DNA of 4,863 nt from a virus (Duplodnaviria; Heunggongvirae; Uroviricota; Caudoviricetes), in IMG/VR virus record IMGVR_UViG_3300031577_000084; one strand, 5' to 3'. Position numbers and translations under genes: made by a program. This document shows positions 1 to 4,767 of this stretch, one piece after another; the first letter of the stretch is position 1, and each line of letters starts with the position of its first letter. The notes beneath the pieces are model-generated. The model did not search any database, had not been told where the DNA came from, and worked only from the letters and a program-made list of their open reading frames with translations.

Positions 1-617
1 GCGACGGCATGACCGAAGGTGTGTTTATGCTGCCTAAGCTGAAAACGGATGACATGAAAACGGGTAATAAGGTCTATCTGAAGTCCGGAAAAGTTCAGCT
101 GACTAACAGCGGCTCTGATCCGCTGGCCTGGCGTCCGGGTGACAGCGGGCAGAAAAAACTGGTTCAGTTGTTCGACTCCGGTGAAGTCTGCGCGTTTCGT
201 ATCAAATATCCCTACGGCACTGTTGATGTTTTCCGTGGCTGGCTGAGTTCACTGGGTAAAACCATTGCCTCAAAAGACGTGATGACCCGCACTGTGAAAA
301 TCAGCGGTGTGGGGCGTCCGTATCTGGCAGAGGAAGGCACTGAAACCGTGGGTGTTACCGGGCTGACGGTGGCACCGGCATCTGCCAGTGTAAAAGTGGG
401 AGCAACCACCACACTGACCTTTACGGTAAAACCTGACGGAGCCAGTGACAAAACGATCAGTGCGTATTCGTCAGATCCACAGACTGCCACGGTGACCCTG
501 AACGGGCTTGTCGCTACGGTGAAAGGTGTGAAGCAGGGTAATGTCAGCATTGTGGGCATTACATCTGACGGTGATTTTGTGGCAGTGGCTACGGTGGCCG
601 TCAGCGCCGCAGGTTAA
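1..617 (+). CDS. V: Major tail (tube) protein, gpV-like; 5'-partial (N-terminus lies upstream of the window), reading frame begins at nt 3
   Basis: Frame is open from the window edge to TAA at 615-617; the ATG at 9 is internal, not the true start. The translation contains a ...GTVDVFRGW.SS.GK...TRTVK...VGRP... core that I recall as closely matching lambda gpV, followed by a Thr/Val/Ala-rich C-terminal Ig-like segment. It sits immediately upstream of the G/T/H genes, as in lambda. Confidence 0.9.
   Translation, partial: DGMTEGVFMLPKLKTDDMKTGNKVYLKSGKVQLTNSGSDPLAWRPGDSGQKKLVQLFDSGEVCAFRIKYPYGTVDVFRGWLSSLGKTIASKDVMTRTVKISGVGRPYLAEEGTETVGVTGLTVAPASASVKVGATTTLTFTVKPDGASDKTISAYSSDPQTATVTLNGLVATVKGVKQGNVSIVGITSDGDFVAVATVAVSAAG
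354..614 (+). other. C-terminal Ig-like (Big_2-type) domain of the major tail protein
   Basis: The last ~87 aa (VTGLTVAPASASVKVGATTTLTFTVKPDGASDKTISAYSSDPQTATVTLNGLVATVKGVKQGNVSIVGITSDGDFVAVATVAVSAAG) show the alternating beta-strand pattern and T/V/S/A richness of bacterial Ig-like domains. Lambda gpV carries an equivalent C-terminal domain. Domain boundaries are approximate. Confidence 0.6.
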
Positions 618-637
618 CAGGACGATACTCATCATTT

Positions 638-661
638 GCCCCGGTCATCCGGGGCTTTTTG
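638..661 (+). terminator. Rho-independent terminator-like hairpin between V and G
   Basis: A perfect 7-bp GC-rich inverted repeat, gccccgg (638-644) / ccggggc (649-655), flanks a 4-nt loop (tcat) and is followed directly by TTTTT (656-660). It starts 21 nt after the V stop codon. Confidence 0.6.
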
Positions 662-673
662 CAGGTGGAGAAT

Positions 674-1063
674 ATGATTTTTCTGAAACAGGACACGTTT
701 AATTATGAAAAACAGTCCGTGGTGCTCAGTGAGCTGTCCGGGCTACAGAGAATTGAATATCTGGCGTTTCTTCAGCAGCGAACAGCAAAGTTTGATGCCG
801 GGGAGGGAGAACTGCCGGAGGCTGAACGACGGATTGCTTTTCTGCGTATGGGGATGGATATCAATGCCTGGCTGGTTTCCCGCTCACTGTGGAATGCGGA
901 ACAGTCTCAGGATGTTGAGACGCTTTACGCATCCGTTATTACAACATGGTCGTATGATGCACTGGGAGCGGGGGCGGAGATGGTACTGTCGCTGAGCGGT
1001 ATGGGAGCCATTGAGAATGCCGGGGATTTTGAGCATGAGGCGCTGACGCCGGAAAAGTCCTGA
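674..1063 (+). CDS. G: Tail assembly chaperone, gpG-like
   Basis: ATG at 674 is preceded by the purine-rich aggtggagaat; the TTG at 659 in the ORF track lies inside the terminator T-tract and is unlikely to be the start. Stop is TGA at 1061-1063. The product is ~129 aa and acidic, in the position directly after V and before the tape measure gene. A -1 frame extension overlaps its last codons, which is the hallmark G/GT arrangement. Confidence 0.85.
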   Translation: MIFLKQDTFNYEKQSVVLSELSGLQRIEYLAFLQQRTAKFDAGEGELPEAERRIAFLRMGMDINAWLVSRSLWNAEQSQDVETLYASVITTWSYDALGAGAEMVLSLSGMGAIENAGDFEHEALTPEKS

Positions 1064-1401
1064 CGCGGGAAATGCAGTTTGTCATGCGTCTTGCCCGGGA
1101 GTTCCGGCGGGCAGACTGGCGGCGGATGCTGTCGGAAATGTCGGCCACTGAGCTTGGTGAGTGGGGCGATTATTTCCGGATGCAGAGCTTCAGTGATGTG
1201 TGGATGGATGCGCAGTTTGCCTCGCTGAAGGCATTGATCGTGAGAATGGTGTCCGGCAGCAGTGATGCTGAGGTGACTGATTTCAGCCTTTTACCGGAAG
1301 AGAACGGGATACCGGAGCGAACTGACGAAGAACTGATGCATCTTGGAGAAGGTATTTCCGGAGGTGTGCGTTATGGACCAGATAGCCAACCTGGTCATTG
1401 A
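674..1401 (+). CDS. T: Tail assembly chaperone fusion gpGT-like, produced by -1 frameshift; approximately join(674..1057,1057..1401)
   Basis: The -1 frame is open from 1039 to TGA at 1399-1401 and encodes ...VLTREMQFVMRLAREFRRADWRRM...GISGGVRYGPDSQPGH. The in-window ATG at 1072 lacks a convincing independent RBS and lies 8 nt after the G stop. This layout matches the conserved G/GT frameshift arrangement upstream of tape measure genes in long-tailed phages. Predicted fusion is ~242 aa. Confidence 0.7.
1051..1057 (+). promoter_or_regulatory. Putative -1 programmed ribosomal frameshift (slippery) site, G GAA AAG
   Basis: The T frame is closed by TGA at 1036-1038 and the G frame ends at TGA 1061-1063, so any G-to-T shift must occur within 1039-1060. 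The only slippery-looking sequence there is g-gaa-aag (1051-1057), one base different from the lambda G GGA AAG heptamer as I recall it. The A-site AAG to AAA re-pairing is the classic lysine slip. Confidence 0.6.
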
Positions 1402-4400
1402 TTTGGGGATTGATGCGGCAGAGTTTAAAAATGAAATTCCCCGTATCAAAAACCTTCTGAATGGTGCAGCCAGCGATGCAGAACGGTCTTCTGCCCGTAT
1501 GCAGCGTTTTATGGAGCGTCAGACTCAGGCCGCCCGGCAGACAATGCAGGCGGCTTCTTCGGCTGCAACAGCCGCATCCGTCCATGCGCAGACGGTGGAG
1601 AAGAGCGCACAGGCTCATGAACGCATGGCCCGCGAGGTGGAGCAAACCCGCCAGCGCATGGAGGCGCTGAGCCAGAAAATGCGCGAGGAACAGGCGCAGG
1701 CCATGGCTCTGGCGGAGGCTCAGGATAAAGCGGCTGCCGCGTTTTATCGTCAGATTGACAGTGTGAAACAGGCCAGTGCGGGTCTGCAGGAATTACAGCG
1801 TATTCAGCAGCAGATCCGACAGGCCAGAAACAGTGGCGGGATTGGTCAGCAGGATTATCTGGCGCTGATTTCTGAGGTTACGGCGAAAACCCGTGTTCTT
1901 ACACAGGCTGAGGAAGAGGCTACCCGACAGAAAGTGGCGTTTATCCGTCAGCTTAAAGAGCAGGCAACCCGCCAGAATCTTTCATCTTCTGAGTTGCTTC
2001 GTGCTAAGGCTGCCCAGCTGGGGGTAAGCAGTGCTGCAGAAGTGTATATCCGCAAAATGGAGCAGGCAGGAAAAGCCACGCATTCGCTGGGTCTGAAAAG
2101 TGCAGCGGCTCGCCAGGAGATAGGCGTTCTGATAGGTGAACTGGCCCGCGGCAATTTAGGGGCGCTGAGGGGATCCGGGATAACGCTTGCTAACCGTGCC
2201 GGATGGATAGACACACTGATGTCACCGAAAGGCATGATGCTGGGTGGGGTTATTGGCGGTATTGCTGCGGCCGTCTATGGTCTGGGTAAAGCCTGGTATG
2301 ACGGTCAGAAGGAGGGGGAAGAATTTAACCGCCAGCTGTCGCTGACGGGGCATTATGCCGGAGTTACTGCCGGGCAGCTGTGGACGCTCAGTCGTGCTAT
2401 TTCCGGGAATGGTATCACGCAACATGCTGCAGCCGGTGCGCTGGCTCAGGTGGTGGGTAGTGGTGCATTTCGTGGAAACGATATCGGTATGGTGGCGAGA
2501 TCTGCCGCACAGATGGAACGATCGGTTGGCCAGTCGGTCAGCGATACCATAAATCAGTTTAAGCGGCTGAAGGATGATCCTGTAAATGCCGCGAAGGCTC
2601 TGGACAATGAGCTGCATTTTCTTACTGCCACTCAGCTTGAGCAGATACGCGTCCTTGGGGAGCAGGGACGGTCCAGTGATGCTGCACGGATAGCCATGTC
2701 TGCACTGGCAGAGGAAACCGGTCGGCGTACTGCGGATATTGATAATAACCTCAATGCGCTTGGCAGTACGCTGAAGTATCTGTCTGATTTGTGGAGTCGT
2801 TTCTGGGATGCGGCCATGAATATTGGTCGTGAAGACTCGCTGGATGAACAGATTGCCACTTTACAGGAGAAAGTGTCGCGGGCGAAAAGGCTCCCCTGGA
2901 CGGCATCATCTTCTCAGGTTGAATACGATCAGCAGCGTCTTAACGATCTTCAGGAGAAAAAACGCCAGAAGGATTTACAGGATGCAAAAGAGCAGGCAGA
3001 GCGGAATTATCAGGAGCAACAAAAACGCCGGAATGCTGAAAATGCTGCGCTGAACCGGATGAATGAAACGGAAGCAGCACGACATCAGCGTGAAATTGCG
3101 CGTATTAATGCCATGCAGTACGCCGACCAGGCTGTCAGGGAGGCGGCGATACAACGTGAAAATGAACGTTACGAGAAAGCCCTGGCATCCGGTAAGAAAA
3201 AAACACGCGACCCCCGTAATGATGAGGCCACCCGGTTATTGCTGCAGTACAGTCAGCAACAGGCACAGGTGGAAGGGCAGATTGCTGCTGCCAGACAGTC
3301 AGCAGGCATTGCCGCTGAAAAGATGACAGAAGCGCATAAACAGCTTCTGGCTCTGCAGCAGCGCATCAGCGACCTGGACGGGAAAAAACTGACGGCAGAT
3401 GAAAAGAGTGTGCTGGCCCGTAAAGATGAACTGATTCAGGCACTGACGCTGCTGGATGTAAAACAGCAGGAGCTTCAGAAACAGACGGCACTCAACGAGC
3501 TGAAGATAAAAACAACTCAGCTGACCAGTCAACTGGCTGAAGAAGAGCGCGCTCAGCGTCAACAACATAATCTGGATATCGCCACGGTGGGTATGGGTGA
3601 TCAGCTGCGGCAGCGATATCAGGTACAACTGAGTCTTCGCCAGAAATACCAGCAACAGCTGGAGCAGTTGAGGCGGGATAGTGAGCAGAAAGGGACATAT
3701 AACACGGATGACTACAGAAAGGCCGAGCAGGCGCTGACGGAGAGCCTGAACCGACAACTGAATGAGAATCGCCGTTACTGGCAACAGCTTGAAGTTGTGC
3801 AGGGTAACTGGAAAAACGGAGTCCTGCGTGCATTTCAGGATTTTACCGTGGATGCAGATAATACGGCAGGAACAGCAGAACAGGTGTTCTCGTCAGCCTT
3901 CAGCAACATGGGAAATGGCCTGGCAACTTTTGTCACTACCGGCAAACTCAATTTCAAATCCTTCACCTCTTCTGTGCTGTCAGATATGGCGAAAATCCTG
4001 GCGCAGGCAACCATGATGAAATCGATAAAAGGGATTGGCAGTGTACTGGGATTTGATCTCAGCAGCCTTTCCCTGAATGCCAATGGGGGGATTTATCAGT
4101 CTGCTGATTTGAGTCGCTACAGTGGCTCGGTGGTTAACCGTCCGACGTTTTTTGCTTTTGCAAAAGGCGCGGGTGTGATGGGGGAAGCTGGACCTGAAGC
4201 CATTTTGCCACTGCGTCGTGGTGCTGACGGTAAGCTTGGGGTTGTGGCGGATATTGGTGGTTCAGGTATGGCGATGTTTGCCCCGCAGTACAACATCGAG
4301 ATCAATAACGACGGCACGAATGGGCAGATAGGTCCAGCTGCCCTGAAGGTGGTTTATGACCTTGGGAAAAAAGCGGCAGCGGACTTTATGCAACAGCAGG

Positions 4401-4438
4401 CCCGTGATGGTGGTCGGTTAAGTGGAGCATATCGGTAA
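1373..4438 (+). CDS. H: Tail tape measure protein, gpH-like (1021 aa)
   Basis: ATG at 1373 is preceded by GGAGG (1360-1364) with an 8-nt spacer; the TTG at 1343 in the ORF track is probably not used. Stop is TAA at 4436-4438. The N-terminus (MDQIANLVIDLGIDAAEF...) and the C-terminus (...INNDGTNGQIGPAALKVVYDLGKK...DGG...) closely match lambda gpH as I recall it. It has long Q/R/E/A-rich coiled-coil stretches, a hydrophobic Gly/Ala-rich segment (~2231-2295, GMMLGGVIGGIAAAVYGLG) and a conserved ...AGPEAILPL... motif near the C-terminus. It overlaps the T stop by 29 nt in another frame. Confidence 0.95.
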   Translation: MDQIANLVIDLGIDAAEFKNEIPRIKNLLNGAASDAERSSARMQRFMERQTQAARQTMQAASSAATAASVHAQTVEKSAQAHERMAREVEQTRQRMEALSQKMREEQAQAMALAEAQDKAAAAFYRQIDSVKQASAGLQELQRIQQQIRQARNSGGIGQQDYLALISEVTAKTRVLTQAEEEATRQKVAFIRQLKEQATRQNLSSSELLRAKAAQLGVSSAAEVYIRKMEQAGKATHSLGLKSAAARQEIGVLIGELARGNLGALRGSGITLANRAGWIDTLMSPKGMMLGGVIGGIAAAVYGLGKAWYDGQKEGEEFNRQLSLTGHYAGVTAGQLWTLSRAISGNGITQHAAAGALAQVVGSGAFRGNDIGMVARSAAQMERSVGQSVSDTINQFKRLKDDPVNAAKALDNELHFLTATQLEQIRVLGEQGRSSDAARIAMSALAEETGRRTADIDNNLNALGSTLKYLSDLWSRFWDAAMNIGREDSLDEQIATLQEKVSRAKRLPWTASSSQVEYDQQRLNDLQEKKRQKDLQDAKEQAERNYQEQQKRRNAENAALNRMNETEAARHQREIARINAMQYADQAVREAAIQRENERYEKALASGKKKTRDPRNDEATRLLLQYSQQQAQVEGQIAAARQSAGIAAEKMTEAHKQLLALQQRISDLDGKKLTADEKSVLARKDELIQALTLLDVKQQELQKQTALNELKIKTTQLTSQLAEEERAQRQQHNLDIATVGMGDQLRQRYQVQLSLRQKYQQQLEQLRRDSEQKGTYNTDDYRKAEQALTESLNRQLNENRRYWQQLEVVQGNWKNGVLRAFQDFTVDADNTAGTAEQVFSSAFSNMGNGLATFVTTGKLNFKSFTSSVLSDMAKILAQATMMKSIKGIGSVLGFDLSSLSLNANGGIYQSADLSRYSGSVVNRPTFFAFAKGAGVMGEAGPEAILPLRRGADGKLGVVADIGGSGMAMFAPQYNIEINNDGTNGQIGPAALKVVYDLGKKAAADFMQQQARDGGRLSGAYR

Positions 4439-4767
4439 TGGAGACGTTTCACTGGAAAGTGCGCCCGGATATGAACGTGGTATCAGAGCCAAAAGTGGTG
4501 ACAGTGAAGCTGGGCGATGGTTATGAACAGCGTCGTGCGGCGGGACTGAATAACCAGCTGTCGACTTACAGCGTGACGATACGTGTTCGTAAATGTGAAC
4601 ACCCATCTTTAAAAGCCTTTCTGGAACGGCACGGTGGCGTCCGCGCATTTCAGTGGACGCCGCCTTATGACTGGAAACCGATCAGGGTGGTTTGTCGTAA
4701 ATGGTCGGCAAGCGTGGGGGCGCTGTGGGTAACCATAACGGCAGATTTTGAACAGGTCGTGGTATAG
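4438..4767 (+). CDS. M: Minor tail protein M, gpM-like (109 aa)
   Basis: ATG at 4438-4440 overlaps the H stop codon (TAATG). The translation (METFHWKVRPDM...KLGDGYEQRRAAGLN...TYSVT...FLERHGG...WTPPYDWKPIRVVCRKWS...ADFEQVV) is near-collinear with lambda gpM as I recall it. Stop is TAG at 4765-4767. Confidence 0.95.
   Translation: METFHWKVRPDMNVVSEPKVVTVKLGDGYEQRRAAGLNNQLSTYSVTIRVRKCEHPSLKAFLERHGGVRAFQWTPPYDWKPIRVVCRKWSASVGALWVTITADFEQVVV

Follow-up and report, generated by a model that had tools for sequence, protein, structure and literature searches.

Comparative analysis of a predicted G-T programmed -1 frameshift site, G_GAA_AAG, in a lambdoid phage tail module

The overlap of tail genes G and T in the stretch of DNA analysed here (4863 nt; the window) very probably contains the programmed -1 ribosomal frameshift site for the G-T fusion chaperone of a lambdoid prophage of the mEp460/cdtI type. 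Most ribosomes would read G through to its stop codon, TGA 1061, and produce a chaperone of 129 amino acids. A small fraction would slip back by one base with GAA in the P site and AAG in the A site (1052-1057); tRNA-Lys would re-pair perfectly on AAA (1054-1056) and tRNA-Glu near-cognately on GGA (1051-1053), with the pairs G:C, G·U and A:U. Reading would then resume at GTC 1057 in the T frame and continue to 1401, giving a fusion of 242 amino acids with the junction ...TPEK/VLTRE.... By analogy with lambda, the G part of this protein would bind the tape measure protein H, and the T part would recruit the tube protein V. The lambda-type G/G-T frameshift is an ordinary and already known arrangement, and the heptamer found here is identical to a site annotated in phage N15. 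Production of the fusion in the present phage is predicted from the comparison of its genes and of the junction.

The tail module and the recoding window

The window holds a lambdoid phage tail module in the order V-G-T-H-M, with a Pfam match for each gene (Table 1). V matches PF16461 (Phage_TTP_12) at 5.9e-29 and PF02368 (Big_2) at 1.9e-12; since the former match spans profile positions 64-135, the N-terminus of V lies outside the window. G is a member of the gpG family (PF06894, Phage_TAC_2, 5.7e-40) and shares 31% identity with lambda gpG (BLASTP, E 3e-16). T is a gpT homolog (PF06223, Phage_tail_T, 6.6e-15; 38% identity to lambda T, BLASTP E 3e-27) that is encoded in the -1 frame, with an overlap at the 3' end of G. 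H matches TMP_2 (4.9e-49), Tape_meas_lam_C (3.2e-22) and TMP_4. G and T are located between V and H, which is the lambda-type placement. These identities agree with the first-pass annotation, a reading of the letters without database searches, which had recognised a lambda-like G-T programmed -1 frameshift at this place.

Table 1. Features of the window, with coordinates in nucleotides from its first letter
Feature	Position	Strand	Basis
Major tail protein gene, 3' part (lambda V homolog), with C-terminal Big_2 domain	1-617	+	Pfam
Intrinsic-terminator-like hairpin (7 G-C pairs) and T run, V/G intergenic	638-660	+	Hairpin scan
Gene G, tail assembly chaperone, 129 aa, zero frame	674-1063	+	Pfam, BLASTP
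Last T-frame (-1) stop codon upstream of T, TGA, 5' limit of recoding	1036-1038	+	Frame scan
SD-like GAGG, 10-nt spacer to the heptamer; Glu codon and first base of an Ala codon of G	1037-1040	+	Motif scan
Putative slippery heptamer G_GAA_AAG, P-site GAA (Glu), A-site AAG (Lys)	1051-1057	+	Frame scan, homology, N15 annotation
T-frame (-1) coding sequence after the predicted slip, T domain of the G-T fusion	1057-1401	+	Pfam, BLASTP, alignment
G stop codon, TGA, 3' limit of the recoding window	1061-1063	+	Frame scan
Tape measure gene (lambda H homolog)	1373-4438	+	Pfam; start from mEp460 and RefSeq annotations
Minor tail protein gene (lambda M homolog)	4438-4767	+	Pfam PF05939 at 9.9e-40

A scripted check places G in frame 2, from ATG 674 to its TGA, and T in frame 1, i.e. 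-1 relative to G. The T frame is open from 1039 to TGA 1399-1401 and would be entered after the slip at the valine codon GTC 1057. Because of the T-frame stop upstream and the G stop downstream, any recoding from G to T is confined to the 22 nt from 1039 to 1060; the coordinates previously assigned to both limits and to the span between them are all correct. This stretch reads GGC GCT GAC GCC GGA AAA GTC C in the T frame and ...GCG CTG ACG CCG GAA AAG TCC TGA in the G frame, with the heptamer in the register CC(G GAA AAG) TCC TGA. It contains no canonical XXXYYYZ heptamer (the nearest, at 876, 1067 and 1094, are all outside), and among its seven G-frame codons A_AAG is the sole in-register Z_ZZN tetramer. 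G_GAA_AAG is therefore the only slip candidate, as the first-pass annotation had stated, and the junction it had predicted, ...TPEK/VLTREMQ..., agrees with the sequence, which gives ...ALTPEK/VLTREMQ....

The window contains three copies of the string GGAAAAG where 0.7 would be expected, so that the copy in the overlap might be a chance occurrence in a decayed prophage in which G-T is unexpressed. The prophage region is also very common in E. coli, and rare G-T deletion fusions are found in databases. The copies at 87-93 (in V) and 2069-2075 (in H), however, are in the register GGA_AAA_G; only the copy at 1051 has the slip register, and its position is conserved in the family. It is its register, its place in the 22-nt overlap and its exact positional conservation that jointly set this copy above chance. 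Decay is also at odds with the five tail ORFs, which are all intact and have strong Pfam matches, and with the presence of 96-97% identical sequences in the named, host-assigned phages mEp460, cdtI, Ayreon and phi458. We consider this explanation barely credible.

The slip site in lambda, in the phage family and in annotated records

The lambda G/G-T frameshift was described by Levin, Hendrix and Casjens (1993) and by Xu, Hendrix and Duda (2004, 2013, 2014), as cited in PMC5009743; the lambda heptamer G_GGA_AAG is an experimentally established slip site. The lambda junction is ...TCT GCG GGA AAG TGT TCG.... Read after the slip, lambda gives GK/VFDGELSFALKLAREM and the window would give EK/VLTREMQFVMRLAREF. 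The conserved LARE motif of T is preceded by the Lys codon at a distance of exactly 13 codons in either sequence, without indels. Since this distance is identical, the two heptamers represent the same site and are one base apart (G to A, position 3). Aligning the window G-T against lambda had been proposed in the first-pass annotation as a check; the slip site turns out to be positionally homologous to G_GGA_AAG, and the A-site Lys slip from AAG to AAA is identical in lambda.

The likeness to lambda extends to the Pfam families of G and T, the V-G-T-H-M order, the position of T in the -1 frame over the 3' end of G, and the codon position of the heptamer relative to the T domain. There are also differences. 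Because heptamer position 3 is A in the window and G in lambda, the P-site codon is GAA rather than GGA. The G·U formed on re-pairing is at the third position in lambda (tRNA-Gly on GGG) and would be central in the window (tRNA-Glu on GGA). The G stop codon follows the heptamer after one codon in the window and after six in lambda, and the recoding window is 22 nt long here compared to 61 nt in lambda.

We gathered named phages by tblastn and read their G-T junctions individually. N15 (genes 14/15), HK225, phi80, mEp043 and Fels-1 carry an identical GGAAAAG in the same register and at the homologous position, although their T proteins are only 41-66% identical to that of the window. Lambda and PhiR12_4 have GGGAAAG, Stx2_95 has AAAAAAG, and the Vibrio phages in this set have C_CCA_AAA one codon upstream. 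The GenBank record of N15 (AF064539) contains a misc_feature at 10027-10033 labelled "slippery sequence for -1 translational frameshift", and the bases at these positions are GGAAAAG. The codon before GAA is GCG in N15, HK225, phi80 and mEp043, and CCG in the window.

Further loci were taken from one-genome-per-species bacterial contigs (63) and from viral contigs (80). Of all 156 usable loci, 34 representatives were kept, no two of which share 90% identity or more across a context of 97 nt. All 34 have an A-rich slip motif at the homologous position: GGAAAAG in 24, GGGAAAG in three, GGCAAAA in two, AAAAAAG and GGGAAAA in one each, and the Vibrio type in three. The hosts of GGAAAAG lineages include Escherichia, Salmonella, Citrobacter, Kluyvera, Kosakonia, Enterobacter, Klebsiella, Providencia, Sodalis, Symbiopectobacterium, Pluralibacter and Phytobacter. 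The heptamer stays constant while the flanks fall below 50% protein identity (Kluyvera, Kosakonia, Enterobacter, Klebsiella, Providencia, Sodalis and others), and the T proteins of these lineages go down to about 41% identity with that of the window. GGAAAAG is thus the majority heptamer of the family and lambda's GGGAAAG the minority form. The site had earlier been called a variant heptamer, which is right insofar as it differs from GGGAAAG; it is not unusual, however, with 24 of 34 lineages carrying it compared to three with the lambda form, and with an annotated example in N15.

Another group of loci (L056-L062, L064-L068) gave uniform T matches with 38% identity to the window T, mostly on short or low-coverage contigs. 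The assemblies are unrelated (Kitasatospora, Paenibacillus, Neobacillus, Oceanobacillus, Enterococcus, Leeuwenhoekiella, Shewanella and others), and most of the matches carry lambda's junction context. They are almost certainly lambda DNA contamination and not true prophages.

In the lineages L033, L039 and L054 (Providencia), L024 (Kluyvera) and L026 (Ewingella), the G stop codon TAG directly follows the heptamer. The forms seen there, around locus position 1498-1507, are GGAAAAG-TAG, GGCAAAA-TAG and GGGAAAA-TAG. A stop-codon-assisted slip of tRNA-Lys in the P site may operate in these lineages, which would mean that the same position is used by a different mechanism.

The closest relatives of the window are mEp460, cdtI, Ayreon and phi458, with 96-98% identity in the G-T region, and 1847 of 5426 complete E. 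coli genomes have prophages with the same region. The 22-nt recoding window and the heptamer are identical in these phages and prophages, and there are few point differences. G-T slippage is unannotated in all mEp460-type phage and RefSeq E. coli records (L001, L002, L003, L004). In mEp460 and RefSeq, T is a separate coding sequence that begins at the ATG equivalent to 1072, and in Ayreon the start lies 66 nt further downstream. The fusion product is therefore systematically absent from mEp460-type annotations.

These annotations correspond to a scheme with no frameshift at all, in which T is made alone from ATG 1072 by re-initiation after the G stop. The ATG lies only 8 nt past this stop, with a G-rich GGGAA just before it. 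The spacer between GGGAA and the ATG is only 1 nt long, however, and among the 24 GGAAAAG lineages the ATG is found in that of the window alone; the other 23 have CTG, CTT or CGN at this position, and lambda and N15 have CTG. By contrast, the T-frame Glu codon immediately upstream (1069-1071) is invariant in an alignment of 11 phages and present in 19 of the 24 GGAAAAG sequences. In several lineages, e.g. Providencia L033, the stretch from the heptamer to LAREF is devoid of start codons, so T is not independently initiated in general. In addition, it is the G part that links T to the tape measure protein in lambda gpGT, and a free T would be without this tether (PMC5009743). A start of T at ATG 1072, which the first-pass annotation had set against a fusion, is thus contradicted by an unconserved ATG and a conserved T-frame Glu upstream of it. 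Re-initiation as the sole source of T is very improbable and is not how the family makes this protein; a minor extra product of this kind is conceivable in the present phage.

The comparison instead points to a -1 shift at G_GAA_AAG that yields a G-T fusion with T as its C-terminal portion. This bears on annotation, where T is entered as a stand-alone gene with an ATG start in phages of the mEp460 type and in roughly one in three complete E. coli genomes. A protein search with the fusion sequence returned no curated slippage product, only the singleton fusions P0001, P0002, P0003 and P0016. These have the G and T Pfam domains in one continuous ORF that arose from internal deletions joining the frames, and they probably represent decayed prophages or errors of assembly rather than annotated products of slippage.

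One or two slipping tRNAs and the expected efficiency

Position 1 of the heptamer is G in all 24 GGAAAAG representatives, although the codon that ends in this base varies: GCG (10), CCG (7), CTG (4), TTG, GTG and ACG, i.e. six codons that specify five amino acids. The background share of Pro, Ala, Leu (CTN), Val and Thr codons with a third-position G is only 36% in the same G and T genes. This corresponds to p of about 2e-3 if the six codon types are taken as independent, which is not a true probability since the lineages are related. Position 1 is synonymous in G, and the GGA codon to which it belongs in the T frame remains untranslated if the slip occurs at the heptamer; its invariance therefore suggests selection on the RNA. 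Since position 1 matters only if the P-site tRNA re-pairs, the invariance also argues for re-pairing in the P site, and all seven positions of the heptamer appear to be under selection. We favour a two-tRNA slip with near-cognate P-site re-pairing, which the conservation pattern makes reasonably likely.

The first-pass annotation had expected a middle-position mismatch in the P site. The position is right, but the pair is more precisely a G·U. The anticodon of tRNA-Glu is 3'-CUU-5', with a modified U34. After the slip, the window and lambda forms would each have one G·U pair, central with tRNA-Glu and third-position with tRNA-Gly, respectively. In thermodynamic modelling of dnaX variants, a single G·U in place of A·U in the -1 frame carries a cost of about 5 kJ/mol, and substantial shifting remains, with second-position mismatches lying outside these measurements (PMC6787027).

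With respect to the canonical X_XXY_YYZ pattern, positions 1-3 of the heptamer are not identical (G, G, A), whereas positions 4-6 are (A_AAG), and both AAG and AAA are read by the single E. coli tRNA-Lys (PMC5009743). G_GAA_AAG would thus act as a heptamer but is not a canonical member of the class.

The departure from X_XXY_YYZ is what would be expected if only tRNA-Lys slipped on A_AAG, with GAA as mere 5' context, as in the NNA_AAG hexamer class (IS1222, Bacillus cdd). The efficiency of A_AAG depends on the two 5' bases and on the wobble of the preceding tRNA (PMC5009743), and Kluyvera L024 and Ewingella L026 have G_GCA_AAA, on which P-site re-pairing is impossible. IS3, IS1222 (G_CGA_AAG) and Bacillus cdd (A_CGA_AAG) share with the window both the A-site move of tRNA-Lys from AAG to AAA and a P-site codon without cognate re-pairing. 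Position 1 is unconstrained in those systems and lies outside the hexamer, yet here it is G in 24 of 24 lineages (0.36 expected) despite six codons with a synonymous third base. Moreover, hexamer and tetramer sites require strong 3' stimulators, e.g. a pseudoknot, and no conserved structure was found here within 95 nt downstream. A shift mainly by a single tRNA(Lys), as the first-pass annotation had proposed, is unlikely on these grounds.

GGAAAAG is a natural test case, both for near-cognate P-site re-pairing with a middle G·U and for the minimum shift rate that sustains tail assembly: the majority heptamer of the family is neither the textbook lambda form nor X_XXY_YYZ, yet all seven of its positions are conserved.

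It is plausible that the site differs in efficiency, as the first-pass annotation had suggested, and that it is less efficient than that of lambda, possibly by a wide margin, because in vitro work has used G GAA AAG as a poorly slippery control. In the reconstituted E. coli system of Peng et al. (2019), AUG GAA AAG was "unfavorable for slippage" and gave mainly the 0-frame product at all EF-G concentrations, whereas G GGA AAG gave more than 70% of -1 product under limiting EF-G; EF-G mutants in domain 4 still allowed the GAA construct to shift (PMC6924986). Sharma et al. (2014) found A_AAG without a stimulator to be near background, about 0.15%, compared to 5.6% with the IS3 pseudoknot (PMC4066793). 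Lambda needs a G:GT ratio of about 30:1 (PMC5009743). In the literature within reach, we found neither an in vivo frameshift value for GGAAAAG in a G-T context nor experimental evidence for any GGAAAAG G-T site; text searches for GGAAAAG gave the control construct of Peng et al. as the only relevant result, and the PRFect paper contained no relevant motif data.

Candidate stimulators and the surrounding operon

An internal SD sequence stimulates -1 shifting at a spacing of 9-14 nt (PMC5009743), and the GAGG upstream of the heptamer lies within this range. SD-like 4-mers with a 9-14-nt spacer are present in eight of the 24 GGAAAAG lineages, compared to a background of 6.8% within G. Five of them are at exactly 10 nt (the window, L027, L028, L048 and L072), a spacing shared by one lineage with GGGAAAG (Edwardsiella, L051) and one with GGCAAAA (Ewingella, L026). 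No SD-like element at this spacing is present in N15, phi80, HK225, mEp043 or lambda; in Fels-1, AGGA lies at a spacer of 12 nt. G has an acidic C-terminal tail, whose composition favours an in-frame GAG-G; yet spacers of 7 and 19 nt do not occur at all, and spacers of 13 and 16 nt occur once each. GAGG may stimulate the shift, which we regard as a lead and not as a result, or it could be a mere effect of Glu codons in the acidic tail of G.

A downstream stimulatory structure was considered and rejected. RNAalifold on the 24 diverged GGAAAAG lineages gave -1.5 kcal/mol, with a 4-bp invariant helix as the only feature and no covarying pairs, and the minimum-free-energy fold of 1058-1150 is no better than that of shuffled sequences (z -1.4). 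The first hairpin of this fold begins directly after the heptamer, with no spacer, whereas 3' stimulators usually lie a few nucleotides from the slip site. An Rfam scan of the whole window at E<=1 gave no match. The lack of a conserved 3' structure is a further likeness to lambda G/G-T. Transcriptional slippage was likewise rejected, because the A run of 4 nt is too short for it.

The arrangement resembles E. coli dnaX (A_AAA_AAG, flanked by an internal SD at 10 nt on the 5' side and by a 3' hairpin) in its AAG A-site codon and in the 10-nt spacer of GAGG. Unlike dnaX, the window has no 3' hairpin, and its SD-like element is a candidate of only 4 nt that is found in about a third of GGAAAAG lineages. 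One might speculate that G_GAA_AAG is a true two-tRNA site that tolerates a central P-site G·U and is evolutionarily preferred in enterobacterial lambdoid phages, and that GAGG at 10 nt is a dnaX-style stimulator setting the G:GT ratio in some lineages, this one included. We put this combined proposal forward only tentatively and with considerable doubt.

The strong V/G intergenic hairpin has the sequence GCCCCGG-TCAT-CCGGGGC followed by TTTTT, and its counterpart is labelled as a rho-independent terminator in the mEp460, Ayreon and N15 records. Such a terminator-like element would reduce the transcription of G, T and H relative to that of the abundant tube protein V. Further downstream, the H start codon ATG 1373 sits 29 nt inside the end of the T frame, and the H stop and M start codons overlap as TAATG (4436-4440). 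These overlaps suggest translational coupling along the tail operon.
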